Notes: generated from the sequence alone by a model not told the origin. Positions 4,266 through 53,769 are shown, counted from the first letter of the stretch. The stretch is 64,000 bases of DNA from an archaeon (GCA_041645325.1 JBAZQI010000001.1:8945-72944); one strand, 5' to 3'. Numbers and translations: made by a program.

Positions 4266-4307
4266 ATATTTGGTTTAAAGCGAAGAACACCCTTTTTCTT
4301 TTTTTTT

Positions 4308-4703: not shown

Positions 4704-4740
4704 TGCTTTTCGCTTTCCCTTTTTCTTTTTTTTTTTTAAA
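4704..4740 (+). terminator. oligo-T tract (archaeal-type terminator) after 4376..4702
   Basis: ttttcgctttccctttttcttttttttttttaaaag contains a run of 12 T. Confidence 0.4.
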
Positions 4741-4856
4741 AGCCTTTTGCCGTGGGCAAAAGCCTTGGGAAAAAGCTTCGCAAAAAAACAGGCAAAGCCA
4801 CCGCACCTGCGAAGCAAACCAATTAAATACATTCCAGCTCAAAATTCATTATTCGT

Positions 4857-5071: not shown

Positions 5072-5072
5072 A

Positions 5073-6509: not shown

Positions 6510-6626
6510 CTTTTTCCACCCCTAAATAGGTTAAGAATAAAAGAATAAATAAGTTGCCCCTCTTTTCAAGGCTTGCCTACGTTTTTCCGAATGTCTTTTA
6601 TTAATTTGCAGGCCTAATAATTTCGG

Positions 6627-7052
6627 GTGGTTGCCTTGGATGAATGCATTTTCTGCAAAATCGTTTCGGGAAAAATTCCCGCAACAAAACTTTACGAGGA
6701 CGATTTGGTCCTAAGCTTTCTTGACATAACGCCTGCCGCCAAGGGCCATGCCCTGGTAATTCCGAAAAGGCACTATGCCACGCTTTTGGATATGCCGCAC
6801 GAGGAACTAAAGCAGGTTGCTGAGGCAGTACAAAAAATAGCGGCTGCTACAATGGTTGCCCTGCCTGGCGTTGAAGGCTTTAATGTTTTGCAGTCAAACA
6901 ATGAGGCCGCAGGCCAGGTCATTCCGCACGTGCACTTTCATGTGATTCCAAGGCATAAGGAAGACAATATCAATTTTGCATGGGAACACGGCAAGGCTGA
7001 AATGGAAGAACTGAAAAGGTATGCGGCGCTTGTCAGGCAAAAAATCAGGTGA
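6627..7052 (+). CDS. HIT-family nucleotide hydrolase
   Basis: Histidine-triad motif HVHFHVIPR; N-terminal CIFCKI. Confidence 0.85.
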   Translation: MVALDECIFCKIVSGKIPATKLYEDDLVLSFLDITPAAKGHALVIPKRHYATLLDMPHEELKQVAEAVQKIAAATMVALPGVEGFNVLQSNNEAAGQVIPHVHFHVIPRHKEDNINFAWEHGKAEMEELKRYAALVRQKIR

Positions 7053-7214
7053 TGATATGCCGGATGATGAGCAGGAAGGTTTGAGACAAAAAAGGCAACT
7101 GAAGAACCAGTATGACGATTTTTTGCACAAGATTCAGCAGGAAAAGATGAAAGAGCTTTGGGGCGGCAAAGAAGACGAGGCTTGGGAAAATGCTTGATTC
7201 CTGTGTAGTTCTTA

Positions 7215-8723
7215 CTATTCCGCCTTTTTGAACAAAATTTCGCCTTTCTTCACTTTGGTGCCTGCCTTCAGCAGGTTGAATCTGCATTCTTTCAAAGAGC
7301 CTGCTTTCACGCCTATTTGTGCATTGATTTTTTCGCTTGTTTCAGGCATGAATGGCTGCAAAAGAATTGAAATTATGCGCAGCGAGTCAGCCAAAGAGTA
7401 AAGCGTGCCATTTCGTTCCTTTTCTTCCTGTTTCCAGGGCTGTTTTTCGTTGATGAACTGGTTGCAGGCAGTTACGAATGAAAAGATTTCCGCAAGTGCG
7501 TGGTGCAGTTCCAGTTCTTTCATATGCTTTTCAATTTTTTCAAGATTAAGCTTTTTCTGCAGTTCCTTGTCAATTGTTCCCATTGGCACTGTTCCCTTGC
7601 AGTATTTTTCAATCATCACAATTGTCCTGTTCACCAGATTTCCCAATCCGTTTGCAAGCTCGTTGTTCAGCCTTTCTTTCAGCGCTTCCTCCGAGAAATT
7701 GCCGTCCTGCCCGAAAGGGATTTCCCTTAAAAGGAAGTAGCGCAGGGCATCCACGGTATAGCTGTCTGCAAGCGCTATCGGGTCTATTACAGTGCCCTTG
7801 CTTTTGCTCATCTTTTCCCCGAATTCGGTATTGATGAAGCCGTGCACAATAATGTTTGGCAGTTTAATTCCTAATGCAAGAAGCATTGTTTTCCATATAA
7901 CTTCGTGGTGCCAAACGATATCAGAGCCCACAACGTGTGTCGCCGGCCAGAACTTTTTAAATTTTTGATTTGGATATTCCACCGTGGATAAATAATTTAT
8001 CAGAGCATCAACCCAAATTGCAACGGTTAGGCCTTTGTCAAAAGGCAGTGGGATTCCCCATTTTACTTTTTCCCTTGTTATTGTCAGGTCTTTCAGCGGC
8101 TCTTTTAGCCTGTTTAAAATTTCATTCCTTTTTTTTTCCGGCCAGAGAGAATCTGGATTATTTTGCAGGTCTTCAACGAGTTTTTTTTGATATTTGCTCA
8201 TCCTGAAAAAATAACTTTTTTCCTTTACTCTTTCAGCCTCTTTTTTGTGCACAGGGCACTTTCCTTCAACCAAATCCTTTTCCATGTAAAATGTCTCACA
8301 GTCAACGCAGTAGTTTCCTTCATATTCCCCTTCGTATATATCTCCCTTTTCATAGAGTGCTTTCAGTATTTCATCAACCGTTTTTTCATGCCTCTTTTCG
8401 GTCGTCATTATAAAGTCGTCATAGGAGATGTTGAGAACCTTGCACAGTTCCCTGAACAGGTCGGAGATTTCTTCAACAAACACGCTGGGCTCTTTTCCTG
8501 TTTTTTCTGCGGCTCTCTGGATTTTCAGGCCATGGCAGTCTGTTCCTGTGCTAAAGTACACTTCGTATCCTTCAAGCCTTTTCCAGCGAGCAATGGTGTC
8601 AGTAACTATCTTTTCGTATGCATGCCCCAAATGAAACCGACTTGAGGGATAATCTATGGCCGTACTTATGAAAAAGGTTTTTTGCATATTACAACACTTC
8701 AAATAACAATCCTGGTAAATCAA
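7215..8723 (-). CDS. metG: methionyl-tRNA synthetase (short form)
   Basis: HLGHAY (HIGH) and KMSKS motifs. Zinc knuckle CVDCETF...CPVH. Confidence 0.9.
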   Translation of the reverse strand: MIYQDCYLKCCNMQKTFFISTAIDYPSSRFHLGHAYEKIVTDTIARWKRLEGYEVYFSTGTDCHGLKIQRAAEKTGKEPSVFVEEISDLFRELCKVLNISYDDFIMTTEKRHEKTVDEILKALYEKGDIYEGEYEGNYCVDCETFYMEKDLVEGKCPVHKKEAERVKEKSYFFRMSKYQKKLVEDLQNNPDSLWPEKKRNEILNRLKEPLKDLTITREKVKWGIPLPFDKGLTVAIWVDALINYLSTVEYPNQKFKKFWPATHVVGSDIVWHHEVIWKTMLLALGIKLPNIIVHGFINTEFGEKMSKSKGTVIDPIALADSYTVDALRYFLLREIPFGQDGNFSEEALKERLNNELANGLGNLVNRTIVMIEKYCKGTVPMGTIDKELQKKLNLEKIEKHMKELELHHALAEIFSFVTACNQFINEKQPWKQEEKERNGTLYSLADSLRIISILLQPFMPETSEKINAQIGVKAGSLKECRFNLLKAGTKVKKGEILFKKAE

Positions 8724-8757
8724 TAAAAAGGAAACTTTGCTTATAAAGCAAATGCCT

Positions 8758-9534
8758 TTACCTGGTGTTCATGTTGATGTTCCCAAATCTTCTGTTTCTT
8801 TCATCGATGTTTGATATTGCTGCATTTAGCGCTCTCGTTTTCGCACGGTGTTGAATGTAAGGCTTTAACGAATTAAGCAATTCAACAAGGTAAAATTTTT
8901 TGCTTATTACCAAACTCCAGTAATCTCCATTGTGCACGTATCCTTCGCGGGTAACATATCCTTTCCTTGCACCAAGACACAACTTTCTGCATTTTATCCC
9001 GAATTTTGGAAGTGTTTCAAGTATTTTTTCTAATAATGCTTTGTCATAATTTCCCAAAGCATAAACTGCCTGCCCTTTGGAAATGCCAATGTGCCCCTCT
9101 GCGTCTGTAAATCCCGCTAAAAAGGAGAAGAAAACATCTTCTTTTTGGAAGATCCAATCTGGGGCAACTTTACTTAATAAGAAGCTAAAACTTAAGGGGA
9201 GACCAACTCCGATACTTTTGGCTCCTCGTTTGTTTTTCTTTGAGATCCAAAGTGTAGAATACTTTTGGAACATGCTTTGAATCAGTTGCAGTTGTTCTTC
9301 TTTCGTTGTGCCGCATTCAATTGAGATTGTTTCACTATTTTTACCGCCTGTTCTTGCTCTCAAATCACCTATCCTAAAGCCAATTAGGTAAGCCTTTTCC
9401 AACAAATTGCCGCTAAAATCCTTCCGAGGATAAATCATTTGAGCACCCGCAGGGGTTCTTGTTTTTATCCCGTACTCTATCAATTTCTGTGCACAGTGCT
9501 TCTTGAAAATCCATATAGCTTTTCTATTTCCCAA
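8758..9534 (-). pseudogene. LAGLIDADG homing endonuclease domain (two motifs), 3' part of a frameshifted HTHx4-LAGLIDADG gene
   Basis: LIGFRIGDLRAR and LAGFTDAEGHIGISKG motifs. Its first residues (KKHCAQKLIEYGIKTR) complete the fourth HTH repeat of the upstream ORF in another frame. Confidence 0.7.
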
Positions 9535-10151
9535 CTGGAAAGCCTTTTCTTGCCGTAGAGTTCCAGCAGGGTTTCTTTACTTGGCACATTTTGATTTGGG
9601 CTTCTGGGCAGTCTTGCCTTGATTCCAAACTGCTTAAGCCTTTTCCAGATAGTAGCTTGACAGCAGTTGTATTTCTCAGCTATTTCAAAGGTTGTCAAAC
9701 CCTGTTTTATGTAAAGTTCAATTAGTTCCTTTTTGGTTATTTTTACAAAGCGGCCGTTTGAAGGCTTGGTCTTTATTTTATATTCCCTAAGCCTGTTGAG
9801 AATTGTAGTCATTTTGCAGTCAAACACTTTGGCTATTTCGCTTGGGGCAAGTTTTCTCTTTTCGTATAATTCAATCAAGTCCTCTTTTGGGATTTTTATC
9901 TTCTTTTTCTTTACAAAAAGTTTCACTGCTTCAGCAGTTGTTCTGGGCTTAATGCCATAAAATTTCAGCCAGTAGCAGATTGAGCCGGCGGTTCGGTCAA
10001 AAAGTTTCCCTATTTCTGATGTAGGACGTTTCTGCCTAGTGTACAACTCTTCCAACACTTCTTTCGAAATTTCAGCTTTCACTCTCCCACCGCACAAAAT
10101 ACGGTTTTGCCGTTTAAAATCGCTTTGAAAGAGCAGGTTTCCGCTAATCAC
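9480..10151 (-). pseudogene. four tandem ~45-aa helix-turn-helix repeats, 5' part of the frameshifted homing-endonuclease gene
   Basis: Repeats KE(V/D)L(E/I)ELY..(K/R)....EI.K......TI..RLK.(Y/F)GIK(P/T/A)R appear 4 times. GTG start overlaps the stop of a 34-codon upstream ORF (GTGA). Confidence 0.6.
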
Positions 10152-10252
10152 TGAAACCCCTCCCTATTCATGTTTTGCAGCAAGTCGTCAAAGGAAAAGC
10201 CGTCGCTGAATGGATTGCCTTTTGTTTCTGAAAGTTTTTGAGAAAAACTCAT
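10148..10252 (-). CDS. small acidic ORF (34 aa) translationally coupled to the HTH-LAGLIDADG gene
   Basis: MSFSQKLSETKGNPFSDGFSFDDLLQNMNREGFQ. Its TGA stop overlaps the downstream GTG start. Confidence 0.25.
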   Translation of the reverse strand: MSFSQKLSETKGNPFSDGFSFDDLLQNMNREGFQ

Positions 10253-10690
10253 CCATCATCACCTCCATTCAGAATGAATTTTTTCGTGGACGTCTCTGCT
10301 GCTTTTGGAGGCATTAAATCCTTTGTCCTGAGCGCAGCGAAGGCAAAGGTTTAAGCCGAGAAAAGCAGAGTCCTAAGAAAAAATTCGAAATTGGATGTGA
10401 TGGGGTTTTAATCAAACCCTTTTATTCCTTTCTGGTAAGGGTGCAGTTCGCTTTCCAAATCCTTTCTCCTTTGGCCGGTTTGCTTTCGCAATTGCTTACC
10501 TATAATTATTTCGGCGCACTAATACTTAAAGGGAATTTTTTCATACCCAACACGAATTTTTTGGTTCCCGACACAATAGCCGGCGGAATGCCATATTTTT
10601 TTTGGAATAAGGGAATTACCGGAAGCCTGCTCTCTTGGGGTGTGCTTTTAAAGGGAAAAAAGGGTATTTTTTTTATGGTGGGGGGAGAAA

Positions 10691-13600
10691 ATGGCGCTTG
10701 AGGAAGATGCTGATGATGAATCTGATTTTTCCCCTGATTTTTCTGCAAAAGCGGGGAAGGCTGGTGCGAAGCAAATTTCCCCTGATGAGGGAAGCGAAAG
10801 CCCCTATGTTTCCAAGTTTCTTGAATTTTTTGAGGCCAATTACAAGAAGGAATTGGAGCGGCTTGTTGAAAACTATCCTGACAAGAGAAGCCTTGAGGTT
10901 GACTTCAGGCTGCTTGAGCAGTTTGACATAGAGCTTGCGGACGCGATTTTGGACTCTCCTGACCTGCTGCTTGAAGCCGCAAAGGACGCGATTGAGCAGA
11001 TTGAGGTTCCTGCGCTTGAAATTGAAATCTTTTCTCCGCATGTGCGCTTTTTCAACATCCCGAAAGAGCATGAGCCTTTGGTGAGGGACATAAGCGCTGC
11101 ACAGCTTGGAAAGTTTATTGCGGTTGAAGGTGTTGTAAGGCAGATTACCACTGTGCTGCCAAAGCTCAAGGTTGCGGTGTGGAAATGCAGGCACTGCGGC
11201 AACACTTACGAGAAAGTGCAGGATGACCAGCAGCTCAAAATGCCTTCTTTCTGCGAATGCAGGCACAGGGACTTTGACCTTGTGCCGGAGCAATCCGAGT
11301 TCATTGACAGCCAGCGTGTTGAAATACAGGAGCCCTTGGAAAGGCTGAAGGGAAACGAGCAGGCCTCTACATTGCAGGTATACATTGCCGACGACCTTGT
11401 CAACAGGATAAGTGCAGGGGACAAGACAAGATTTACAGGGGTACTGAGGCTTGCGGTGCCGGACAAGAAGAAAACAGTTTACGGCAGGTACCTTGAGGCC
11501 TTTCATTTGGAGGAAACCCAGCGCGAATTCCTTGACGTTGAGATATCGCCTGAAGAGGAAAAGGAAATAAAGGATTTGGCGTCAAGCCCTGACATTTATG
11601 AAACGCTTATAAAAAGCATTGCGCCCGCAATTTACGGCCACGAAAAGGTCAAGGAATCAATCATCCTGCAGTTGTTCGGCGGCGTCAAGAAGAACCTGCC
11701 CGGCAACCAGACTGTGAGGGGAAACATCCACGTTTTGTTGGTGGGTGACCCTGGTTGCCTTGTTGCTGATGAAAGGATTGTGCTTGGCAATGGTGCAATT
11801 GAAAAAATCGGCAGCATTGGTTCAAGGCACTTGGAGGAAATAAACCTGCAGGTGCTCACAGGGCAGGGTGGCGCGAAAAGGGATACAGCAACTGTTTTCC
11901 ATTATTACAAGAGCCAGCCTGTGATTGAAATAGTTACAGAGAGTGGAAAAAGCATCAAGGGAACGCCAAACCACCCTCTTCTGTGCATTTCAAAAGAAAA
12001 CAGCCGTGTTGCAAGAAATTGGAAGCGCCTTGACGAATTCAGAGAAGGGGACAAGGTTGCGGTAGTGACTGGAATTCCCTGCACGATTACCCGTTACATT
12101 GAGACTGGCTTTAACCAATTGCCGCCTATTGGCGGGAGCAAATTCAAGGGTTCCTTACCTGAAAAGGTTACACCGGAGCTGGCTTCTTTTTTGGGTTATA
12201 TGGTTGGAGACGGCTGGGTTAGAAACTATGAAACGGCCTTTGTTGTGGCGGATAATGAAAAAGAGCTGTTGGAGCCGCTTCTCAAAATGTGTGAAAACCT
12301 GTTTGCGATAAAATCCTCTGTTGTAAGAAGAAAGCTTGAGGGAAGAAAAGTCTGGCTGAATTATGCAAGCATTTATTCGAAAAGCATTTCGCAAAACTTG
12401 CTCTTTTTGAGGGAAAAGCGTGTTCCAAACCCCATACTTAAGTCAGGCAACAAGGTTGTGGCATCCTTTTTGAAATGGCTTTTTACCGCAGACGGTTGCG
12501 TTTTCAACAATGGGCGGGGGAGGAGAGCTGTTTCATTTAAGGCAAAAAATATTGAACTGCTAAGGGACCTGCAAGTGCTTCTCCTCAGGTTTGGCATTCA
12601 CGGCAGAATAACTGGGAATTCACTTCAAATAAGGCGGGGCAGGGACATCATAAAGTTTGCGAAAAAAATCGGGTTTGCTTCAAAAAAGAAACGGGCTACA
12701 CTAAAAAAACTCGCGGAAGAAGCAAAGTCTTTTGCAGGGTTTAATTCCCAACGAAGCGAAAAAATAGTAAAAATTATTCAGCATGAGCCGGAAGATGTTT
12801 TTGATATTGAAGTTCCTGGCAGTCATCGTTTCATAGCAAACGGTGTCATCTCGCACAACACAGGCAAATCTCAGCTTCTTCAGGCCGCAAACACCATTGC
12901 GCCCAAAAGCATTTACACCGCGGGAAAAACCACGAGCGGCGTTGGATTGTGCATTGCGCCTGATTCTTTGGTGCTGAATGGCAATGGCTTTAAGAGGATT
13001 GAAGACTTTGTTGAAGAAAATTTCTGCAATGAAAAAGCGTTTGAGGAAATTCCCGGCGCATGGTCAAATATTTTTGATGGAAAGAGCCTTTCTTTGGACA
13101 ATGGGCTAAAAGCCGAAGAGGGAAAAATTTCCAAGATTTGGAGGCTAAAAGCCCCTGAAAAAATGTTTAGGGTGAAGACAAGGCTCGGAAAGGAGCTTGA
13201 GCTCACGCCGCATACTTCTCTTGTTAGACTAAAAGAGGGCAATGTTGGCTGGGTTGAGGCGCAGGAAATAAGCGAAGGCGATTTCATTGCCTGCGCAAGA
13301 AAACTGCCTGAAGGCGGCAGAAAAAACATTCCTGCAATCGGCATAATTGCGCATGACAAAAACGTGCGGATAAAGGACAATGTTGCAGTGCAATTGAAGG
13401 AAATAACCGACGGGCTTATGGCAAAGTACGGTTCTTTGCAGGAAATAGCCAAAAGCATTGGCAAAAGCAGGAATACGCTTTATTCAATCAGGAACAAAAA
13501 ATTCTATCACGGCATTTCTTTGAAGAATTTTGTTGAACTTGGCAAAGAGGCAGGATTTTCATTGGAAGCGCTTTCAGGGTGTGTTTCCACGATTTTCATA

Positions 13601-15577
13601 AGCTATGGAAAGGAAATGAAAATTCCGCGATATTTGGATAACGAGCGGCTTGCTTATTTGGCCGGCTTGGCTTTGGGTGACGGCAGCCTGTATGAGGCCG
13701 ATAGAAGTGCGTCTTTGAGGATTTTCAGCGCTTCACCGCAGCTTTTGCAGGAAGTTGACAACATTGCCCTGGATTTGTTTGGCTTGGAAGCTGAGAAGAT
13801 TGATGATGGAGTCAGGGTTCCTGCCAGGAGAATAAAATTCAGGGCTGTTTGTGAGCTTTTGAAGGCATTTGGCCTGGATAAAAGGAAAGGCAAAATAAGA
13901 ATTTCGCATCTTGCCTCGGAAATGCCTAACAATATTCTTTCAAAGCTCTTGCAGGGCTTGTTTGACACCGACGGCTGGGTTTGCAGTGGCAAAGACAGTC
14001 ACTGCATTGGCATGACAACGATTAGCAGGGATTTGGCGCAAAGCGTGCAGCTTTCTTTGCTAAAATTCGGCATCAGAAGCAAATTAAGGGAAAGAAAGAA
14101 AGCCGGCGTGCTTGCCGTTGGCAGAAAAATCTCTGTCACAAGCAGGCACAATCAGTATTGCATTGAAATAATGGGCAAAGAAAGCGTTGGGCTGTTCAAA
14201 GAGCACATCGGATTCAACCTTGCGCGAAAAAAAGAGAAATTGCAGGAACTTGCAACAAGCGTTCCAAAAGGCAACACAAACATTGATGTTGTTCCGCAAA
14301 TTCAAAGCCTGCTGAAAGCGGAGAAAGCAGAGTGGATTTACAGCAGTGGCAGGTCAAACATTTCAAAGGAAAAGCTGCAAAGGCTTGCAGGCGAGCAAGC
14401 ACTTGGCAATTCATTGTTGAAGCAATTGGCGGAATCTGATGTGATGTGGGAGCAAGTTGCGGAAAAGGTTTGCATAGAGTCGGCATACCCTTTTGTTTAT
14501 GATTTCTCGGTTGAAAAAAACCATAATTTTGTTGCAAACGGAATTTTTGTGCACAACACTGCATCTGCAGTCAAGGACGATTTTGGCGAGGGCGGCTGGA
14601 CATTGAAGGCTGGTGCGCTTGTTTTGGCCAGCGGCGGGGTTTGCATGGTGGATGAGCTTGACAAGATGGAGGCAGAGGACAGGAGCGCAATGCACGAGGC
14701 AATGGAACAGGGCATGATTTCAATAGCAAAGGCTGGCATTGTCACAAGGTTCAAGTCCGACACAAGCATCTTGGCCGCGGCAAACCCAAAGATGTCAAGG
14801 TTTGAGCCCTACCAGCCTTTCATTGAGCAGATTAATTTGCCGGCTTCGTTGATTTCAAGGTTTGACCTTTTCTTCATGATAAAGGACGTTTTGGACAAGA
14901 CAAAGGACGAGGCAATCACGGCGCACATCCTCAAAACGCACAAGGGCGGGGAAATGATTTCACAGTACAAGCAAAAGGGCAGGGTCATGCTGAAACAAGA
15001 CCAGGATGACATTGACCTTATTTCCTCGCCGCCGATACTGCCGGAATTGCTGGGAAAATACATTTCCTATGCAAGGCAAAACGTTTTCCCGATAATGAGC
15101 AAGGAGGCAATACAGCTCATTGGTGATTTTTACATCGGGCTGAGGGACATTGGGCGAAAAGAGGGAAGCTATGCGGCAACCCACAGGCAGCTTGAGGGCC
15201 TTGTAAGGCTTTCAGAGGCAAGCGCAAGGGTGCGCTTAAGCGACATTGCGGAAAAAGAGGACGCTGAAAGGGCAATAAGGCTTGTGAAGGCTTCTTTGAG
15301 CGATGTTGTCACAGACCCTGAAACAGGCAAGATTGATTATGACATCATTATGACCGGGCAGACTCACACCCAAGTTACGAACATGCGCAAAATCCTCACC
15401 ATCCTGAGGGAAAAGGCGAAAGAGCAGGACAATGTGCCGTTGCAGGATGTGCTCAACGAAGCTTCTGTGCAGGGAATTGACGCGGAAAGGGCGCGTGACC
15501 TCATAGCAAAGCTCGAAAAAAACGGCGAGCTCTACAGGCCAAGGCACAATTTCCTCAAGCCGACGAGAAACGAGTAA
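10691..15577 (+). CDS. mcm: MCM replicative helicase precursor carrying two inteins (mature about 724 aa)
   Basis: N-terminal OB/zinc (CRHCGN..CECRH). Walker A GDPG|intein|TGKSQLL. Walker B/arginine-finger region GALVLASGGVCMVDELDKM after the second intein. C-terminal wHTH. Confidence 0.9.
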   Translation: MALEEDADDESDFSPDFSAKAGKAGAKQISPDEGSESPYVSKFLEFFEANYKKELERLVENYPDKRSLEVDFRLLEQFDIELADAILDSPDLLLEAAKDAIEQIEVPALEIEIFSPHVRFFNIPKEHEPLVRDISAAQLGKFIAVEGVVRQITTVLPKLKVAVWKCRHCGNTYEKVQDDQQLKMPSFCECRHRDFDLVPEQSEFIDSQRVEIQEPLERLKGNEQASTLQVYIADDLVNRISAGDKTRFTGVLRLAVPDKKKTVYGRYLEAFHLEETQREFLDVEISPEEEKEIKDLASSPDIYETLIKSIAPAIYGHEKVKESIILQLFGGVKKNLPGNQTVRGNIHVLLVGDPGCLVADERIVLGNGAIEKIGSIGSRHLEEINLQVLTGQGGAKRDTATVFHYYKSQPVIEIVTESGKSIKGTPNHPLLCISKENSRVARNWKRLDEFREGDKVAVVTGIPCTITRYIETGFNQLPPIGGSKFKGSLPEKVTPELASFLGYMVGDGWVRNYETAFVVADNEKELLEPLLKMCENLFAIKSSVVRRKLEGRKVWLNYASIYSKSISQNLLFLREKRVPNPILKSGNKVVASFLKWLFTADGCVFNNGRGRRAVSFKAKNIELLRDLQVLLLRFGIHGRITGNSLQIRRGRDIIKFAKKIGFASKKKRATLKKLAEEAKSFAGFNSQRSEKIVKIIQHEPEDVFDIEVPGSHRFIANGVISHNTGKSQLLQAANTIAPKSIYTAGKTTSGVGLCIAPDSLVLNGNGFKRIEDFVEENFCNEKAFEEIPGAWSNIFDGKSLSLDNGLKAEEGKISKIWRLKAPEKMFRVKTRLGKELELTPHTSLVRLKEGNVGWVEAQEISEGDFIACARKLPEGGRKNIPAIGIIAHDKNVRIKDNVAVQLKEITDGLMAKYGSLQEIAKSIGKSRNTLYSIRNKKFYHGISLKNFVELGKEAGFSLEALSGCVSTIFISYGKEMKIPRYLDNERLAYLAGLALGDGSLYEADRSASLRIFSASPQLLQEVDNIALDLFGLEAEKIDDGVRVPARRIKFRAVCELLKAFGLDKRKGKIRISHLASEMPNNILSKLLQGLFDTDGWVCSGKDSHCIGMTTISRDLAQSVQLSLLKFGIRSKLRERKKAGVLAVGRKISVTSRHNQYCIEIMGKESVGLFKEHIGFNLARKKEKLQELATSVPKGNTNIDVVPQIQSLLKAEKAEWIYSSGRSNISKEKLQRLAGEQALGNSLLKQLAESDVMWEQVAEKVCIESAYPFVYDFSVEKNHNFVANGIFVHNTASAVKDDFGEGGWTLKAGALVLASGGVCMVDELDKMEAEDRSAMHEAMEQGMISIAKAGIVTRFKSDTSILAAANPKMSRFEPYQPFIEQINLPASLISRFDLFFMIKDVLDKTKDEAITAHILKTHKGGEMISQYKQKGRVMLKQDQDDIDLISSPPILPELLGKYISYARQNVFPIMSKEAIQLIGDFYIGLRDIGRKEGSYAATHRQLEGLVRLSEASARVRLSDIAEKEDAERAIRLVKASLSDVVTDPETGKIDYDIIMTGQTHTQVTNMRKILTILREKAKEQDNVPLQDVLNEASVQGIDAERARDLIAKLEKNGELYRPRHNFLKPTRNE
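11756..12859 (+). mobile_element. intein 1 (368 aa) inserted in the MCM P-loop, with LAGLIDADG homing-endonuclease domain
   Basis: Begins with Cys directly after GDPG and ends ...VISHN followed by T. Internal motifs LGYMVGDGWV and LKWLFTADGCV. Confidence 0.85.
12950..14557 (+). mobile_element. intein 2 (536 aa) in MCM AAA+ core, with LAGLIDADG domain
   Basis: Begins CIAPDSLVL... and ends ...GIFVHN followed by T. Motifs LAGLALGDGSL and LQGLFDTDGWV. Confidence 0.85.
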
Positions 15578-17336: not shown

Positions 17337-17575
17337 TAAGCCTTTCTTTCTAAAGAAAGAAAGCCTTGGGAAAGAAAGAAGCCTTTTTTGCTTGGGCAAA
17401 AAAGCCTTGGGAAAGAAAGAAGCCTTTTTTGCTTGGGCAAAAAAGCCTTGGGAAAAGAAATTTTCCCTTTTTTTTTCGCCAGCCCCAAGCAAAGCATGGC
17501 TTTGCGGGCCTCGTACCCTGCAGGGCACTCGGTTTTTCCAAAAGGCTGTTGGGAAAAACGCCTTCGGCAAAAGGG
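17337..17575. repeat. array of AAGCCTTGGGAAAG / GCTTGGGCAAAA modules plus palindromes upstream of aIF2-beta
   Basis: (aaagccttgggaaagaaagaagccttttttgcttgggcaaaa) occurs twice plus a partial copy. Palindromes ctttctttctaaagaaagaaag, gcaaagcatggctttgc and ccctgcaggg are also present. Confidence 0.65.
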
Positions 17576-17620
17576 TTAAAAATGCTCGCAGGGGTTAATT
17601 GGTTTATAGGCCAAAAAGTG

Positions 17621-18034
17621 ATGAAAATGGATTATGATAAAATGCTTGAGCGGCTTTACGCAGGGCTTCCTGAGAGCACAAAAAAGCATGAGCGTTTTGA
17701 GATGCCGCTTGCGGATTCTTTTGTGCAGGGCAATAAGACCATCATAAAGAATTTTTCGGCAATTCTCAAGGCAATAAACAGGGATGGCAAGCACATGTTC
17801 AAGTTCATTGCAAAGGAAACAGCCACCTCCGCCGCAATTGATGACAACAACAGGCTTGTTTTGAGCGGAAAGTTTGACCATGGGCAGGTTAACGGCCTTA
17901 TAACGAGCTATGTCAACCAGTTTATTCTGTGTCCGGAATGCAAGAGGCCTGACACAAAGGTAATGGAAAAGCAGGGCATCAGGATGCTGAAATGCGAGGC
18001 CTGCGGCGCAATAAGCAGCGTAAAAGGGCTTTGA
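17621..18034 (+). CDS. eif2b: translation initiation factor aIF2 beta subunit
   Basis: C-terminal zinc ribbon CPECKRPDT...CEACGA. The ORF-track extension upstream of 17621 is repeat-encoded and is rejected. Confidence 0.85.
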   Translation: MKMDYDKMLERLYAGLPESTKKHERFEMPLADSFVQGNKTIIKNFSAILKAINRDGKHMFKFIAKETATSAAIDDNNRLVLSGKFDHGQVNGLITSYVNQFILCPECKRPDTKVMEKQGIRMLKCEACGAISSVKGL

Positions 18035-19329: not shown

Positions 19330-19381
19330 TTCTTTTGCTGAAAGAAATGGCTTGCCTGAAGGCCTGCCTTTGTGAAAACAT

Positions 19382-19939
19382 TCAGACATCAACCATTGCA
19401 AGCCTGATTCTTCCATCCATATTCTGGCCAAGGACAATTATGTTATGCTCAAACATCTTCCCGATGGATACCTTGGCACAGCAGTCTTTCAGTTCACCCA
19501 AAGCAGCGCGCAGTTTTTCCAAGGAAATGCCTTTGTTCAATGGATGATTAGTGAAACGCTTGCAAATCAAGGCTTGTTCCCTTTTAAGATAAGAAGAAGG
19601 CAAGCGGGATTTTTTGGCTTCAAGAAAATCAACCAATTCTGCAACTGATGGCTTTTCAAAATATTCTTGAATGCCTGTTTCATATGAGCAGGCTGGTTTC
19701 ACCAAAACAAACAATTTTGGATTGCCAAAATCCCCAAAAGAATGCATAAGCACAGAATAGGCTTCGTTGGCAACACGCAGGTCAAGAGGCCATCTTTTTG
19801 CAATAAGCCTCTTGTGCTGGCCGGTGCCAACAAGCACTTTTTTATCACGATTCACAAGCATTGAACCCGTATTCAGGTTTCGCACAAACGCCCCTGCCCT
19901 CTGCTCAAAATTCTTCAGGCGCCTTTTTCTTCCCCTCAA
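19382..19939 (-). CDS. hypothetical protein (no recognised domain)
   Basis: 185-aa ORF with a basic N-terminus. Lies between aIF1A and a secreted-protein gene. Confidence 0.4.
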   Translation of the reverse strand: MRGRKRRLKNFEQRAGAFVRNLNTGSMLVNRDKKVLVGTGQHKRLIAKRWPLDLRVANEAYSVLMHSFGDFGNPKLFVLVKPACSYETGIQEYFEKPSVAELVDFLEAKKSRLPSSYLKREQALICKRFTNHPLNKGISLEKLRAALGELKDCCAKVSIGKMFEHNIIVLGQNMDGRIRLAMVDV

Positions 19940-20029
19940 GCCAAATCACTATCTAATAGATTGTGCTTTTCTGCTTTAAAGACAATGCAGGAGCACGTTG
20001 CTATTCGTTAGCATTCTGCCGAAGGCACT

Positions 20030-20110
20030 TTTTCCCATGGCTTTTTTGCTCAAACCTTTTAGCAAAAGGTTTACGAAAAATGTTTCGCAAGCAAAAAAGG
20101 CTTTTGCCTA
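20030..20110. repeat. hairpin-module repeat region (AAAGGCTTTT family)
   Basis: aaaccttttagcaaaaggttt, cgaaaaatgtttcg and aaggcttttgcctaagc hairpins. Confidence 0.45.
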
Positions 20111-30776: not shown

Positions 30777-30825
30777 TCAATCGCCAAAATAGTTTCCTGA
30801 CAAAGAATTGTAGTAATGCTATTTT

Positions 30826-30942
30826 AAGCCTTTTTGCTTCGGCAAACCTTAGAGATGCTTTGGCATCTCTTACGGTTTCTGAACCTTACAGGTTCAGAAA
30901 AAGCCTTGGGAAAAAAACGCGCCTGTTGGCGCTAAGGCTTTT
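30826..30942 (+). repeat. full-length copy (~115 bp) of AAGCCTTGGGAAAA hairpin-module element
   Basis: aagcctttttgcttcggc-aaaccttagagatgctttggcatctcttacgg-tttctgaaccttacaggttcagaaa-aagccttgggaaaaaaacgcgcctgttggcgctaaggcttttt. About 88% identical to the reverse complement of 36455-36576. Confidence 0.75.
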
Positions 30943-32789: not shown

Positions 32790-32965
32790 TTTGCGAAGCA
32801 TTTTTCCCAAGGCTTCCGAGTACCCTGCGGGGTACGAGGCAAGAAAAGCTGTTGCTTTTCTATGTTTTGCTGTTGCAAAAAAGGCTTTGCGCGAAGCGCA
32901 TTTTTCCCAAGGCTTTTTTGCTGTTGCAAAAAAGGCTTTTTGATGAAACTTTTTTTCAAAAGTTT
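32790..32965. repeat. inverted-orientation copies of TTTTCCCAAGGCTT repeat with hairpins
   Basis: gcatttttcccaaggcttccgagtaccctgcggggtacgagg ... gcgcgaagcgcatttttcccaaggcttttttgctgttgcaaaaaaggc. Confidence 0.6.
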
Positions 32966-32983
32966 CTTGAAGAATAAGGGCTG

Positions 32984-36353: not shown

Positions 36354-36434
36354 AGCCGCCACAGCCGGCTGGTCTGAGTGCCATCTTCGCGCCTTTGTGG
36401 CGCTCGATGCCACAGGCTCGTTGTTGCTCGCCAA
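36354..36434 (+). repeat. family-2 repeat copy A (AGCCGCCACAGCCGGCTGGT ... GGCTCGTTGTTGCTCGCCAA)
   Basis: Conserved 5' and 3' ends shared with copies at 39356, 39755 and 53277. The central hairpin is gcgcc-tttgt-ggcgc. Confidence 0.6.
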
Positions 36435-36454
36435 TTAGCCGTTACGCTTGAAAG

Positions 36455-36576
36455 CCGGGCTTTGCGCCATCAGGCGCATTTTTCCCAAGGCTTTTTCTGA
36501 ACCGGTAAGGTTCAGAAACCGTAAGAGATGCCAAAGCATCTCTAAGGTTTTCCGCAGAAAAAAGGCTTTGCGCCCT
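36455..36576 (-). repeat. full-length copy of AAGCCTTGGGAAAA element (reverse orientation)
   Basis: Reverse complement aligns module by module with 30826-30942, including the agagatgc/gcatctct and tctgaacc/ggttcaga hairpins. Confidence 0.75.
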
Positions 36577-39355: not shown

Positions 39356-39439
39356 AGCCGACACGTCCGGCTGGTACGAGCAAGGGCCCTATTTCGCTCC
39401 CTTTTGGTCGCTCAATAGGGCGGCTTCGCTGGCAAGTCC
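39356..39439 (+). repeat. family-2 repeat copy D (diverged 3' end)
   Basis: agccgacacgtccggctggtacgag ... central hairpin ccctatt/aataggg. Lies 4 nt after the Sm stop. Confidence 0.55.
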
Positions 39440-39541
39440 TTCTTCTTATGGGAAAAAAAACTTTGGAAAAAACCCGTGTTCAATGTCACGAGTTCACTTC
39501 GTTCGCATTTTTAACCTTTTCTTGAAACTATTTTTCATTAA

Positions 39542-39613
39542 GGGCCCTTGGTCTAGTGGTATGATGCTCGGTTGGCAATCGGGAGGTCGCGGGTTCAATT
39601 CCCGCAGGGTCCA
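39542..39613 (+). tRNA. tRNA-Ala(GGC)
   Basis: Acceptor GGGCCCT/AGGGTCC with the G3:U70 alanine identity pair. Anticodon loop TTGGCAA. T-arm GCGGG-TTCAATT-CCCGC. Discriminator A. Confidence 0.85.
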
Positions 39614-39639
39614 AAACCCATTGAGCCCAAGCGAAATGG

Positions 39640-39732
39640 GTTCTCCTGTGGCAGTTGTAATTTTCCAAAGGCTTTTGTGCAACAGCCTTTAACAAAGGCT
39701 GGCGAAAAATGCTTCGCGAGCACAAAAGGCTT
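39640..39732. repeat. AAGGCTTTT-family hairpin modules inside the insert downstream of tRNA-Ala
   Basis: ttccaaaggcttttgtgcaacagcctttaacaaaggctggcgaaaaatgcttcgcgagcacaaaaggctttt. Confidence 0.55.
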
Positions 39733-39754
39733 TTCAATTCCCGCAGGGTCCAAA
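39733..39754 (+). repeat. 22-bp duplicate of the tRNA-Ala 3' end (ttcaattcccgcagggtccaaa)
   Basis: Identical to 39594-39615. Lies 117 bp downstream of the tRNA. Confidence 0.75.
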
Positions 39755-39823
39755 GCCGCCACTGCCGGCTGGTCAGGGTACGATTGCCTTCGGCAATCCT
39801 ACAGGCTCGCTATTGCTCGCCAT
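39755..39823 (+). repeat. family-2 repeat copy B
   Basis: gccgccactgccggctggtcagg...gattgcc-ttc-ggcaatc...ggctcgctattgctcgcca. Confidence 0.6.
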
Positions 39824-39932
39824 TGTGCAAAGTGAAATGGTTTTTTTGCCAAAAGTGCCGCAAATTGGCTTTAATGTTGTTTTTGGCAGCTGACGAAAGC
39901 TTTTTTTAGGCGGTAGGCGTATTCTATTTGAA

Positions 39933-41597
39933 ATGGTTTCCAAAAAGGAGCTTCTTTTGAAGAGCATCCGCGAACTGCTCGCCTTGAACGTTTCCGACAA
40001 GGAAATAGCGATGAACCTCAAAGAGGTTGGCATTGACGAGGCCAATGCAAAAGCCCTTATTCTTGAGGCAAGGCAGCCAGAGGCGCCTGCGCAGGCCCAG
40101 GAGCCTGAGGCAAAGTCTGTTCCTTTCTTTGGCGGCTTTGGGCTGAAAAAAGAGGGCAAAAGCGTTTCGCCTGAAGAAGAGGCAAAAGAGGTTGTGGCTG
40201 AAAGGGAGCAGGCGACTGAAGACCTTGCTGCCGAATCCGTTGAGGGTGAAGAAGAGCCTGAAGGAGGGTCGGAAGAGATTGCGGAAGGCCTTGGCTTTTG
40301 GGACAAATCCGGGGAAAAAAAGCCGGCTAAGGGCAAGGCGGAAAAGAAAGCGCCTTTTGCCTCCGTTGAAACGCCGCCGCTTGGGATTTTTAAAAAAAAT
40401 TCCCTTGATTCGGAGGACGGGGCGGATGAAGCAGGCGAGGATGCCCCTGCAAGAAAAGAAAAGCCAAGCCTTGTCGAGGACATCCTGGTGAGCAAGCTTT
40501 GGGAGAAAGGAATTTTTGCAACCGTAAACCAGAAGCTTGCTGAAATGGAAGACCTCAGAAGGGACCTTGATGCTGTGCTTGACAAAAAGGTTGCGGATGC
40601 AAGCAAAAGGGAAATGGAAAAAATAAAGGTTTTGTTTGACAGCCAGCGCGCGCTTTTGGTGAGCAAGGTTGATTCCGAGCTTGAGGCAAAGGCAAAGGGC
40701 TTTGCGGAAATGATTGAGATGAAGCTCAGGGAAATGCGGGGCATAAACAAGCAGATTGCCTCCCAGATTGAAACAGTGAAGGAAATGGAGCGCGGCTCAA
40801 AGGTCAGTGCCGATGCCATTTCACAAAGGCTGGAGGAAGCCGACAAGCTCAAGGAACGCATTCTCTCCTCGCTGAACGGCGAGCTCATAAACACCAGGAG
40901 CGAAAGCAGGTCCCTTGTGGAGGAAATGGGCAAAAAGCTCGGTGACATGGATGAAAGGATAAACAAGACGCTGCAGCTTGAAAACCAGATTGTTGAAGGG
41001 CTTGTCAAGGAAGCCGAGCGCAGGGTTGTAGCCCTGCTTGAGGAAAAGTCCGCAGAGTTTTCAGCCGAAACCAAGAGTAGAATCGAGGATATTGGAAAAC
41101 TCAAGGATTCCTTCAAAGCGGCCCAAAAAGCCGAGTTTGCAGAGACCGAAGAGGGCATTGCCGCAAAGCTTTCCTTGTTTGAGGAAATGATTGGCAAAAA
41201 CGGCCGGGCCCAGAAGGCCGAGCTTGCAAAGGCGGAAGAGGGCATTGCCGCAAAGCTTTCCTTGTTTGAGGAAAGGGCTGACAAAAAGCTTGAGGCGCTG
41301 GACAAGCTGCAAAAGCAGATTTCCCTGGATTTCAAGCCTGAAAAATTCAGGCAGACAATGCAGGAGCTCAACGAGTTCAAGGCCCAGTTCGTTGACGCAA
41401 TAAAGCAGAACGCCGAAAGCTTCAACGAGGGAATAAAGAATCTGAACCAGCAAAGCCAGGTGATTGAAAGGCAGTTCATGTTACGTGCGGAAAAAATAGA
41501 CAAAAAGATTGCGGAACTCGATGCCTTTGAAAAAAGTTTCGCAAAAGAAATGGGCCTTGCAATAGAAAAAATCCCGAAAAAGGGCAGCGGGAAATAG
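39933..41597 (+). CDS. long coiled-coil protein with acidic N-terminal region and internal 29-aa tandem repeat
   Basis: 554 aa with predicted heptad-rich sequence. A 40-bp perfect DNA direct repeat at 41148-41187 and 41235-41274 encodes EEGIAAKLSLFEE. Confidence 0.55.
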   Translation: MVSKKELLLKSIRELLALNVSDKEIAMNLKEVGIDEANAKALILEARQPEAPAQAQEPEAKSVPFFGGFGLKKEGKSVSPEEEAKEVVAEREQATEDLAAESVEGEEEPEGGSEEIAEGLGFWDKSGEKKPAKGKAEKKAPFASVETPPLGIFKKNSLDSEDGADEAGEDAPARKEKPSLVEDILVSKLWEKGIFATVNQKLAEMEDLRRDLDAVLDKKVADASKREMEKIKVLFDSQRALLVSKVDSELEAKAKGFAEMIEMKLREMRGINKQIASQIETVKEMERGSKVSADAISQRLEEADKLKERILSSLNGELINTRSESRSLVEEMGKKLGDMDERINKTLQLENQIVEGLVKEAERRVVALLEEKSAEFSAETKSRIEDIGKLKDSFKAAQKAEFAETEEGIAAKLSLFEEMIGKNGRAQKAELAKAEEGIAAKLSLFEERADKKLEALDKLQKQISLDFKPEKFRQTMQELNEFKAQFVDAIKQNAESFNEGIKNLNQQSQVIERQFMLRAEKIDKKIAELDAFEKSFAKEMGLAIEKIPKKGSGK

Positions 41598-45004: not shown

Positions 45005-45658
45005 ATGAATCTGCCGACGCGCGAACAATGCCTTGCATTGCTTGAAAAATACAATATTCCCAGGCACATTGTAAGGCACTCGCTTGCGGTTGAAAGGGTT
45101 GCGGTTTTTCTTGCAAAAAAATTCAACGAAGCAGGCATTCCAGTGGATGCCGGGCTTGTGAGCAGGGGCGCGCTCTTGCATGACATTGACAAGATTGAAA
45201 CCTTGAAAGAGGGCTTTGGGCACCTGCACGGCAAAATGGGCAGGGAAATCCTTGAAAAAGAGGGCTTTCCTGAAATCGGAAAAATTGCGGAGGCGCATCA
45301 TTTGGAAAGGGTGCTTTCTCTGAAGCCTTTTTTCCCGCGGGAAAAAAGCCTTGGGAAAAGTGCGCCTGTTGGCGCAAAGCCTTTTTTGCTTGGGCAAAAA
45401 AGCCTTGGGAAAAGTGCGCCTGTTGGCGCAAAGCCTTTTGACTGCTGGGAGGAAAAGATTGTTTATTATGCCGACAAGCGCGTCAACCACGACAAAATTG
45501 TTTCCCTTGACGAGCGTTTTGATTATTTGCTCAAAAGATATGGCATTGAAAAGGGCATTCGCCGCACATTCCTGCATTGCAAACCTCTTGTGGAAAAGCT
45601 TGAAAAGGAGATTTTCTCAAAAATAGATGCAGGTCCTGAATTGGAGGGATTGTCTTGA
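45005..45658 (+). CDS. HD-domain phosphohydrolase carrying an in-frame repeat-element insertion
   Basis: H..HD..K metal motifs (RHSLAVE, LLHDIDK, YYADKRVNHD). Residues encoded by 45323-45440 (KSLGKSAPVGAKPF, twice) derive from the AAGCCTTGGGAAAA repeat. Confidence 0.7.
   Translation: MNLPTREQCLALLEKYNIPRHIVRHSLAVERVAVFLAKKFNEAGIPVDAGLVSRGALLHDIDKIETLKEGFGHLHGKMGREILEKEGFPEIGKIAEAHHLERVLSLKPFFPREKSLGKSAPVGAKPFLLGQKSLGKSAPVGAKPFDCWEEKIVYYADKRVNHDKIVSLDERFDYLLKRYGIEKGIRRTFLHCKPLVEKLEKEIFSKIDAGPELEGLS
45323..45440 (+). repeat. two tandem partial copies of AAGCCTTGGGAAAA-GTGCGCCTGTTGGCGCAAAGCCTTTT module, in-frame within the HD gene
   Basis: Direct sequence repeat with ttttcccgcgggaaaa and gcgcctgttggcgc palindromes. 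Confidence 0.75.
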
Positions 45659-53208: not shown

Positions 53209-53235
53209 AAAACCACTTCATTCCCATTTTATCAC

Positions 53236-53276
53236 TTCAGGTAAATAACCTTTTTTCCATTCTTAATCTTTGCCCT
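53236..53276 (+). repeat. 41-bp direct repeat DR1, a duplicate of the 3' end (last 14 codons + stop) of gene 53353..53769
   Basis: ttcaggtaaataaccttttttccattcttaatctttgccct versus 53357-53397 tttaggtaaatgactttttttccattcttaatctttgccct. Both reverse complements encode RAKIKNGKKVIYLK followed by a stop. Confidence 0.75.
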
Positions 53277-53350
53277 AGCCGTCACGTCCGGCTGGTACGG
53301 GCACAACCTCGCTTGGGCTCGGTTGAGCCGGCTCGCTGCTGCTCGCACTT
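53277..53350 (+). repeat. family-2 repeat copy C, bracketed by the 41-bp direct repeats
   Basis: agccgtcacgtccggctggtacggg...ggctcggttgagcc...ggctcgctgctgctcgca. Confidence 0.6.
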
Positions 53351-53352
53351 AA

Positions 53353-53769
53353 TCATTTTAGGTAAATGACTTTTTTTCCATTCTTAATCTTTGCCCTTTT
53401 TGCGTATTTTTCCAGGTAGTGCACCGTGCTCTTTGAAATGCCTGTAACGCGCTCCACTTCGCGCAGGCTCTGGTAGTCCTTTCTCATTTCAAGCGCCTGC
53501 TGCATTTTCTCCAAAGGCATTGAAATCGGCCTTCCCGGCCTTGCCACTGTTTCCAAAACAACGCCTTTTTGCCAGAGCAATGCAACGCTTTTCTTCGGCA
53601 TTCTTGCAATGCAGCTTTTGCTTGCGCTCGCAGTTTCAAGCATTGCGCATTTTTTCAGGATTCCTTCAAGCAATTCCTTTTTTACCGGCCTGACAAAATG
53701 CAGTTTTGCCGCTTCCTTCGGAATATCCCTGGCGTCCATTCCCGGCAAAACAGAAAAAATCATGCACAA
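53353..53769 (-). CDS. HTH DNA-binding protein (resolvase/sigma-70 region 4-like HTH at C-terminus)
   Basis: SLREVERVTGISKSTVHYLEKY helix-turn-helix. Confidence 0.5.
   Translation of the reverse strand: MCMIFSVLPGMDARDIPKEAAKLHFVRPVKKELLEGILKKCAMLETASASKSCIARMPKKSVALLWQKGVVLETVARPGRPISMPLEKMQQALEMRKDYQSLREVERVTGISKSTVHYLEKYAKRAKIKNGKKVIYLK

Follow-up and report, generated by a model that had tools for sequence, protein, structure and literature searches.

REP elements, of 20-40 nt, are imperfect palindromes flanked by a motif that is conserved; they occur in many clustered copies, and compensatory change preserves their stems. BOX elements of Streptococcus pneumoniae (boxA-boxB(n)-boxC) are intergenic and modular. 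As regards tRNA introns, Fujishima et al. are said to have found in 2010 that sequence-related introns had moved between tRNA genes in the Thermoproteales.

Rickettsia palindromic elements (RPE) are inserted in-frame in many unrelated proteins of a reduced genome, are translated and compatible with protein folding, also occur in non-coding DNA, and have no known transposase (PMC10969869, a review that also mentions BOX elements). According to a census of MITEs, these elements are denser in DPANN genomes than in any other archaeal ones, and the hairpin family treated here is not described there (PMC11602168). For Caldiarchaeum, a model has been put forward in which tRNA introns are gained via mobile elements (PMC3293823).

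Here we describe a family of hairpin-forming repeats in a stretch of archaeal DNA of 64,000 nucleotides (the window, by which the whole stretch is meant throughout), which holds a composite copy at the position under study (Table 1). We think it rather likely, though far from certain, that the family is a selfish and non-autonomous one, made up of palindromic DNA repeats of DPANN archaea. The original prediction of a redundant, modular, hairpin-forming family of the REP kind is supported, both in the genome of the window and in related genomes, and the finding goes beyond it, to a DPANN-specific, structurally constrained unit that colonises intergenic DNA, tRNA introns and coding sequence. A full-text literature search with the core sequence returned only unrelated papers and no description of the family, and Rfam scans (by gathering threshold and by E-value) matched no family to the repeats.

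Architecture and conservation of the unit

All ten loci listed at the outset as carrying scattered palindromic modules contain both the motif and the named hairpins, and all ten follow the unit grammar AAGC-[C T4-7 NN loop N'N' A4-7 G]-CCTTGGGAAAA. In its fuller form the unit reads AAG-C-[C T4-7 N2-4 / loop 3-4 / N'2-4 A4-7 G]-C-CTT-GGGAAAA. The basic unit is 29-41 nt long, with a T-rich 5' arm, an A-rich 3' arm and GGGAAAA after the hairpin, and pairing of AAG with CTT extends the hairpin across a conserved C-C mismatch. Most of the 61 core matches (in the window and in DPANN loci) have, directly 5', a perfect hairpin flanked by aagc. The unit is usually followed by a second short hairpin (tGCCTTCGGCa, GCTTCGC or GCGCCTGTTGGCGC), and then often by another (A)AAGCC.

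Table 1. Repeat-bearing features of the window, with strand and supporting evidence
Feature	Coordinates	Strand	Evidence and context
Unit (2572-2607) + short GCTTCG hairpin	2572-2616	+	Covariance model, 42.5 bits; inside KH-domain gene
Unit (4739-4773) + AGCTTCGC hairpin	4735-4800	+	39.4 bits; between 108-aa membrane-protein gene and tRNA-Ser
tRNA-Ser(CGA) gene	4856-5072	+	ARAGORN, introns allowed; intron 4897-5024, 128 nt
Three 41-nt units head-to-tail (17337-17374, 17378-17415, 17419-17456)	17337-17575	+	58.8-62 bits
Degenerate copy, core AAGCCATGGGAAAA + hairpins	20030-20110	-	22.9 bits; upstream of beta-propeller gene promoter
Composite ~115-nt element	30826-30942	+	Covariance model spans 30825-30914, with large loop insertion
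Cluster between convergent DUF63 and ABC1 genes	32790-32965	-	Full unit 32902-32939, 62.3 bits
Second composite ~115-nt copy	36455-36576	-	Repeat finder and covariance model
Unit-bearing insert 39619-39732 with 25-nt flanking duplications	39594-39757	-	Model spans 39661-39733
Two 54-nt units in HD-domain gene	45323-45430	+	Covariance model; in-frame, sense

With up to two mismatches allowed, AAGCCTTGGGAAAA occurs 23 times in the window against 2.95 expected, a count attained by 0 of 100 shuffles, and there are 62 perfect hairpins whose stems reach 7 bp or more, two to three times the frequency in simulated sequence (16-41 in ten Markov simulations). Searched with a covariance model of the 38-nt unit, the window yields 10 full units (38-63 bits) and 5 composite or partial ones, nine of the ten full units lying on the plus strand. 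The ten loci together make up ~1.2 kb, or ~1.9% of the window.

The stem is structurally constrained. Among 57 model hits, which come from 227 kb of DPANN loci picked for carrying the motif, 99.2% of cells are paired and compensatory changes occur at 7 of 12 pairs, including the outer AAG/CTT pairs and C-G pairs within the T/A runs. The alignment was fitted to the covariance model, and the raw core-match list gives the same pattern. None of 500 shuffles was as good, and slid controls were 33-70% paired. Enrichment, conserved module order, covariation and occurrence in independent assemblies (ENA, NCBI, JGI, Logan) rule out chance or low complexity, and the proviso that low-complexity sequence might explain the similarity is rejected on these grounds. 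The hairpin variant CTTTTTTGC-ttgg-GCAAAAAAG is identical at 17383, 17424 and 45381 and in L002, a relative at ~95% identity, and such identity at separate loci points to copying and not to independent origin. The core unit occurs widely; the accessory hairpins AGAGATGC.., TCTGAACC.., GTACCCTGC.. and GAAAAGC.. are restricted to the window and L002.

Stop codons are depleted in the units, in which 4.98 of the 6 frames are open on average and all six are open in 23 of 54 units (against 0.3% of shuffles). The depletion results incidentally from the T and A runs, and because of it a coding insertion can be survived.

The loci differ in how the modules are combined. In the array at 17337-17575, the three units are followed by accessory hairpins and a variant core (17541-17557), and the whole sits between a divergent VTT-domain gene (minus strand) and the aIF2-beta gene (17582-18034, plus strand). 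The cluster at 32790-32965 also contains a bare core (32802-32816) and accessory hairpins at 32842-32861, 32865-32888 and 32945-32966. In the composite element at 30826, which has a fold z of -5.4, a T5/A5 closing stem holds three hairpins (GC-TTCG-GC, AGAGATGC..GCATCTCT and TCTGAACC..GGTTCAGA) and is followed by the core and GCGCCTGTTGGCGC; its right end forms the last codons and the stop codon (30932-30934) of a TRM5/TYW2 gene. The differences of the second composite copy from it include one compensatory stem change (G-C to T-A) and alterations in three hairpin loops. The repeat finder aligns 30826-30920 with 36474-36568 at 94% over 95 nt, and the two elements are 82% identical over their full extents, so that the earlier figure of about 88% is a fair one. 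The imperfect inverted termini ascribed to these copies are really a long pairing in the copy at 30826, where the internal core AAAAAGCCTT pairs with the right end AAGGCTTTTT, and this pairing is absent from the second copy.

Host and distribution among genomes

The host is a DPANN archaeon, probably of the Iainarchaeota/Diapherotrites. The window encodes archaeal genes of information processing, namely aIF2-beta, eIF-1A, aIF5A, an intein-bearing MCM, proteasome alpha, exosome subunits and L15e. Its HD protein is identical to an NCBI entry labelled 'MAG: HDIG domain-containing metalloprotein [archaeon]', and the nearest named relatives are labelled 'Candidatus Diapherotrites archaeon'. The ENA contig ERZ27249422 (L001, L110) represents the same genome, with 100% identity over 24.9 kb and 99.95-99.97% over 20.6 kb.

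A scan with the 17-mer AAAAAGCCTTGGGAAAA, taking one genome per species, matched at least 107 stretches. Among the matches listed, all multi-hit stretches, and ~30 stretches altogether, are DPANN archaeal contigs. Several belong to 'Candidatus Iainarchaeum' MAGs and others are labelled Nanoarchaeia, Woesearchaeota, Micrarchaeota or Nanobdellati, while the uncultured archaeon CAYHBD01 accounts for at least 11 listed matches and at least one more (L107), over seven contigs. The covariance model places AAAAAGCCTTGGGAAAA within full units in the DPANN contigs. The original prediction had proposed such a model-based scan of related genomes and had considered that the motif might be confined to the window; full units are in fact present in many DPANN MAG contigs.

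In 84 further scan loci, bacterial and archaeal, only two gapped hits of at least 35 bits (36-38 bits) lie outside archaeal contigs, and these look like chance or misbinning. L085, labelled Chloroflexota, has an archaeal intron-bearing tRNA and is probably misbinned. A scan of viral contigs gave 54 single hits of at most 27 bits and no true unit, hence no sign of a virus-borne master copy. A protein-seeded metagenome scan with the ABC1 kinase yielded no more than two contigs, both short and both on the wrong side of that gene. Among the loci scanned, true units are restricted to DPANN contigs, and the bacterial and viral hits look like chance. Selfish repeats are normally genus-specific. That a 14-17-nt core is conserved among contigs bearing the labels of three or four DPANN phyla is out of the ordinary for such repeats, a point against the preferred reading, and could reflect a conserved host factor or a function.

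Units at gene borders, in proteins and in tRNA introns

By context, 49 units divide into tandem sense (13), tandem antisense (6), divergent (9), convergent (7), coding (7) and locus edge (7). These counts rest on crude ORF-based gene calls at loci chosen for containing the motif; four of the seven in the coding class are genuine coding inserts, and some 'divergent' or 'convergent' ones are tRNA introns. Gene 3' ends are not preferred, and the placement therefore does not suit a dedicated terminator. Units overlap gene ends at the TRM5 stop codon in the window and at the L15e stop codon in L002.

The original prediction held that ORF callers extend genes into the repeats. This is correct for aIF2-beta, whose eIF-5_eIF-2B domain begins at residue 32 counted from the 17582 start, and for the beta-propeller gene, whose start lies behind its own TATA box; the gene call of CTP synthase in L006 is also misled by units. 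It does not hold for the KH gene, where the repeat is an in-frame insert.

In-frame units are found in four unrelated proteins, HD and KH in the window and Dus and IleRS in a related MAG, and a predicted copy in a coding region is confirmed by the HD-domain gene (45005-45658). Its two units encode KPFFPREKSLGKSAPVGA and KPFLLGQKSLGKSAPVGA. About 115 of 120 listed HD homologues are 165-200 aa long, mostly 176-188, and the 36 additional residues of the window protein correspond to the two units; the insert is missing in all nine more distant homologues aligned. The number of units varies among alleles, with two in the window, one in the near-identical L001 and none in distant relatives, and the difference between one and two in near-identical assemblies could be due to assembly collapse. 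In L002, the site holds a 213-nt composite that encodes a 71-residue insert, in frame, with four additional perfect hairpins. The 9-mer AAGCCTTTT stands at both ends of the HD insert. The empty sites read AAG AGC CCT TTT GAT (L111) and CCG AAG CCA TTC GGT (L112), so that native K-P-F codons resemble the AAGCCTTTT end of the element. In an AlphaFold2 model of the HD protein, most 10-residue blocks have a pLDDT of 90-97, while residues 108-137, a loop between two helices, fall below 50; the insert is accordingly modelled as a disordered loop within an otherwise confident fold.

The KH gene (2044-2643, minus strand; KH domains by Pfam) carries a 45-nt, 15-codon insert near its 5' end, with the unit antisense to the gene. 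An orthologue in L119 (59% protein identity) shares the N-terminus V/M-T/S-FLPFE and the upstream TATA box and lacks exactly these 15 residues, from which the KH unit would be a translated in-frame insert. The units in Dus and IleRS are in frame and sense, the former just past the TIM barrel of the dihydrouridine synthase and the latter just past the anticodon-binding domain of the isoleucyl-tRNA synthetase. Absence of the insert from orthologues is established for HD and KH. The sense inserts, three of the four, share the frame KPF..KSLGK. Peptide searches with unit-encoded sequence found only short spurious ORFs and one unrelated repeat protein; being uninformative, they do not allow proteins with inserts to be counted.

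These contexts bear on the possibility that selection maintains the unit, site by site, as a functional cis-element, either as a signal for transcript ends, processing or stability or as the binding site of a conserved DPANN protein. A T5-7 run is an archaeal termination signal, and each unit has one on both strands, so that the T-tracts could serve as terminators in either direction while the hairpins shield RNA ends; C(UUCG)G-type loops are also common on the unit sense strand, as seen in the core-match list. Maintenance of the stem by compensatory changes, the conserved core shared by contigs labelled Iainarchaeota, Micrarchaeota, Nanoarchaeia and Woesearchaeota, and the many copies directly after stop codons, including the one that supplies the TRM5 stop, fit such a function. 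However, a terminator would be harmful within the four unrelated proteins that carry in-frame copies, units also lie in divergent promoter regions and tRNA introns, their presence differs between relatives at ~95% nucleotide identity, and arrays of two or three identical units bring no obvious added function. We therefore consider selection for a cis-acting role unlikely. A selfish repeat could plausibly bring with it, as incidental side effects, T-tract termination signals on both strands, stable RNA hairpins and new peptide loops. Three other roles were rejected. Real promoters here use TTTAAATA boxes, which are unrelated to the unit; an origin-recognition box (dyad plus G-string) does not suit copies that are dispersed, lie in genes and have a variable dyad centre; and an array of type III toxin-antitoxin RNAs was dropped because no toxin gene lies alongside.

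The copy predicted to lie in a tRNA intron is confirmed as well. The window tRNA is of class II, with a long variable arm, and with its anticodon loop read as CU-CGA-A it is tRNA-Ser(CGA) with an intron at the canonical 37/38 position. The intron holds two sense units, 4897-4934 (60.6 bits) and 4956-4990 (38.7 bits), each followed by a TGAT-loop hairpin (4937-4956 and 4994-5013), and ends in a tRNA-specific 3' tail. The tRNA-Ser(CGA) of L119 has a 67-nt intron with one degenerate unit. A unit opens the canonical intron in seven cases, from five tRNA species and five assemblies: Ser(CGA) in the window and L119, Leu(GAG) and Ser(GGA) in L012, Ser(GGA) in L085, Gly(GCC) in L034 and Thr(CGT) in L033. 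Some of the intron units are typical and others are of a degenerate variant, AAACC-hairpin-GGTTTGCGAAAAG. The intron 3' tails of tRNA-Ser(CGA) and tRNA-Ser(GGA) are tRNA-specific and, read by eye, pair with the anticodon-loop region in a bulge-helix-bulge-like manner.

The family had been called strand-indifferent; this is true of the intergenic copies, which occur in both orientations, and untrue of the intron copies, all of which are sense to the tRNA. That at least five independent tRNA species show the sense orientation without exception is suggestive, and is not predicted by a purely neutral model of DNA insertion. It would be expected if the units derived from tRNA introns and spread via RNA (a circular intron copied back in a SINE-like manner, or reversed splicing), or if dispersed copies were themselves spliced as bulge-helix-bulge introns. 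Variable target duplications together with an A-rich 3' end are a signature of target-primed reverse transcription, and both are seen here, in the variable-length duplications described below and in the A-rich 3' end of the unit; three of the four coding inserts are in sense, as are all the intron copies. Yet dispersed copies do not have the tRNA-specific 3' tails, antisense orientation is found for the KH insert and for many intergenic copies, and no reverse transcriptase was seen. In every coding insert the frame is kept and stop codons are lacking, which a spliced intron would not need, and such strict frame conservation in four genes argues against splicing. Descent of the units from introns through RNA, or splicing of the dispersed copies, is highly improbable in our estimation, and the simplest reading is that existing introns are harmless landing sites for units. 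A splicing endonuclease of broad substrate range is present in at least some DPANN archaea (ARMAN; PMC3239211), and such an enzyme would tolerate unit-bearing introns.

A related conjecture, to which we give very little weight, is an RNA-linked mobile element, in which excised and circularised unit-bearing tRNA introns would be the source of new DNA copies, or, in a weaker form, a conserved DPANN-wide enzyme would recognise the mismatched hairpin and GGGAAAA. If true, it would account for target duplications of variable length, for a 3' end rich in A and for the bias towards sense in transcribed DNA, and it would represent a SINE-like archaeal system and a living model of the gain of archaeal tRNA introns.

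Signs of movement of the unit and comparison with known systems

Relatives differ in unit content at three orthologous sites, namely the tRNA-Ser intron, the HD gene and the L15e-HD spacer. At the last of these, the window and L111 have no insert, L112 has one 36-nt unit and L002 has ~145 nt. Compared with a relative of ~80% identity, the window tRNA-Ser intron has one additional unit (61 nt), which adjoins AGGCC.

Direct duplications flank several inserts. In the window, 25 nt of the tRNA-Ala 3' end are duplicated at 96% identity (39594-39618 and 39733-39757); in L073 a 17-nt duplication of tRNA-Thr flanks the insert; in L064 a 54-nt duplication (tRNA-Ile 3' end plus trailer) surrounds a bare 29-nt unit; and L102 has a flanking duplication of 21 nt. 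The HD gene shows 9 nt (AAGCCTTTT), and the KH and L15e-HD junctions have duplications of 0-3 nt and overlap by 2-4 nt at most. The check for target-site duplications suggested with the original prediction thus reveals no fixed length (0-3, 9, 17, 21, 25 and 54 nt), and in some cases the junction is similar to the ends of the element itself (GGCTT/AAGCC). Both features argue against a classical cut-and-paste transposase. For the three long duplications at tRNA 3' ends, decayed integrase att sites are an alternative. Neither tblastn nor a motif search revealed a Y1/IS200 transposase in DPANN loci that total 231 kb, a weak test, and no transposase appears in the gene map of the window, in which ~25.6-35 kb and 62.8-64 kb are without Pfam-annotated gene calls.

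The same junctions can be set against a strictly REP-like mechanism, in which single-stranded DNA hairpins are moved by an HUH/Y1 enzyme (a RAYT or a relative of IS200/IS605 TnpA) that cuts beside the conserved AAGCC and inserts the unit 3' of AAGCC sites. Points in favour are the hairpin with its conserved mismatch and the conserved pentanucleotide beside it; head-to-tail arrays are expected if every unit provides a new AAGCC target, and nine of the ten full window units lie on one strand. The apparent target in the HD gene is formed by the native KPF codons (AAGCCTTTT; compare AAGCCATTC in L112), and the insert both comes after AAGCC and ends with it, while the additional tRNA-Ser intron unit lies beside AGGCC. 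IS200/IS605-type transposition creates no target duplication, however, and several inserts are flanked by duplications of 17-54 nt. The empty L15e-HD and KH sites lack AAGCC, the unit has no GTAG-type REP head, and the weak search above gave no Y1 transposase. Movement by an enzyme of this type strikes us as quite unlikely.

Under the preferred reading of a selfish, non-autonomous repeat, units would be copied as DNA to new sites, and amplification or exchange at those sites would then give rise to the head-to-tail arrays and to mosaics with lineage-specific accessory hairpins. Copies would persist where the harm is small, namely in intergenic DNA, in tRNA introns that are spliced out, and in protein surface loops where length and frame permit. 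Insertion may proceed by template switching or repair at microhomology, or the mismatched hairpin may be recognised by an enzyme acting in trans; a transposase of the classical kind, with a fixed staggered cut, would be a poorer fit.

DPANN genomes are very small, yet ~2% of the window belongs to this single repeat family, which alters proteins (HD, KH, Dus, IleRS), lengthens tRNA introns and misleads gene callers. The origin of archaeal tRNA introns is an old open question, and the family offers a testable link between them and dispersed repeats. A model of the unit would improve the annotation of DPANN MAGs, with respect to start codons, false ORFs, intron-containing tRNAs missed by standard settings and misbinned contigs such as L085.

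Several described systems share features with the DPANN unit. Like the introns of Thermoproteales and Caldiarchaeum, it is a sequence common to introns of different tRNA genes, a link between such introns and mobile DNA; unlike them, the shared sequence is also dispersed in intergenic DNA and proteins, and the parts that would form the bulge-helix-bulge are tRNA-specific. Like archaeal MITEs (SM1-4 of Sulfolobus and the IS200/IS605-derived PATEs of haloarchaea), it is a short, non-autonomous archaeal repeat. However, a MITE is defined by inverted repeats at its termini, a target duplication of fixed length and a recognisable parent IS. The ends of the unit, AAGCC... and ...GGGAAAA, are not complementary, its duplications vary in length, and no parent IS was seen in the 231 kb searched or in the annotated parts of the window. 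The MITE-like character at first attributed to the family falls with the missing terminal inverted repeats and the variable duplication length. The resemblance to BOX elements lies in the modular build, the variable number of internal modules and the strong predicted hairpins, while modules, sequence and domain of life are unrelated.

The likeness to REP/BIME is closer, since the DPANN unit is a high-copy imperfect palindrome with a conserved C-C mismatch and a conserved head. REP/BIME have a GTAG head, form alternating arrays and are extragenic, whereas the DPANN unit has an AAGCC head, is arrayed head-to-tail and also lies in genes and introns; REP elements have a RAYT, and none was found in the weak test of 231 kb. 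In behaviour the family is closest to RPE, with which it shares a short palindromic repeat, in-frame inserts (HD, KH, Dus, IleRS) that suit the protein fold, as a disordered loop in the case of HD, copies in non-coding DNA, no known transposase, and a reduced genome. RPE are ~100-150 bp long and restricted to Rickettsia bacteria, whereas the DPANN unit is 29-41 nt long, modular, also present in tRNA introns and accompanied by long variable duplications; a relation by sequence is not expected, and the likeness is one of behaviour rather than of membership. We read the family as REP/RPE-like in its working and as a member of neither of these families nor of the MITEs. It extends to archaea the phenomenon of 'selfish DNA inside protein genes' known from Rickettsia.

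The GCTTCGC second hairpin

The short accessory hairpin that usually lies 3' of the hairpin unit carries GCTTCGC, read as GCGAAGC on the opposite strand, at four positions in the window (see table). GCGAAGC is a DNA mini-hairpin of exceptional stability, and C(UUCG)G loops, on the sense strand, are a stable form in RNA. The loops therefore cannot discriminate between DNA and RNA relevance of the hairpins.

Features in the window
Feature	Position	Strand	Remark
Free-standing LAGLIDADG-like ORF	8758-9438	-	just upstream of MCM gene
Second hairpin GCTTCGC	2608-2616; 4775-4782; 32790-32800; 39708-39716		
Small-RNA-like copy	36354-36441	+	
Small-RNA-like copy	39356-39440	+	GGCTCGCTnnTGCTCGC(C) degenerate
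Small-RNA-like copy	39754-39830	+	
Small-RNA-like copy	53277-53342	+	

Inteins, duplications and a gene-poor stretch

According to the Pfam listing, the MCM helicase gene (10691-15577, 1628 aa) is split by two inteins with LAGLIDADG domains. An HTH protein is also encoded just upstream of it.

A 79-nt direct repeat (3494-3572 and 4298-4376, 77% identical) precedes two small membrane-protein genes. It includes a TTTAAATA box together with GGAGGTGA as ribosome-binding site, and it resembles a promoter and leader that have been duplicated. The 87-nt tandem duplication at 41120-41287 (88% identical) lies within a 554-aa ORF (39933-41597), for which Pfam gave no match, and is probably an internal protein repeat. 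Between the eIF-1A and beta-propeller genes, ∼700 nt (19330-20030) contain a single called ORF, of 40 aa, and no Rfam match.

Neighbourhoods of tRNA-Ser in other contigs

In the relative L119 (about 80% protein identity to the window), a ∼5.3-kb island (5400-10900) encoding AbiEii, HNH/DUF6429 and SWIM-domain proteins separates the PEP-utilising enzyme gene from tRNA-Ser, which are neighbours in the window. At its far edge the island repeats part of the tRNA 3' end, CGCCGGCGGCAA, and it is probably an integrated element. The same remnant occurs in another compared contig, L118, but without a tRNA at that position.

The 3.5-kb contig DAOWAC010000105.1 (L085) is labelled Chloroflexota bacterium but bears hairpin units, as well as a tRNA-Ser(GGA) of archaeal type whose intron is 91 nt long, and is probably misbinned DPANN DNA.

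A small-RNA-like sequence family

A ∼70-90-nt sequence has four plus-strand copies in the window, which make up a candidate family of small-RNA genes. In each copy a conserved 5' hairpin (AGCCGnCACnnCCGGCTGGT) is followed by a variable central hairpin and a conserved GGCTCGCTnnTGCTCGC(C). TATA-like boxes lie upstream of two of the copies, and Rfam gave no match for any of the four. A similar sequence adjoins tRNA-Ser in L085.

The copy at 53277 is bracketed by a 55-nt direct repeat (53222-53276 and 53343-53397, 87% identical), the same duplication-insert-duplication arrangement as is found around some hairpin units.
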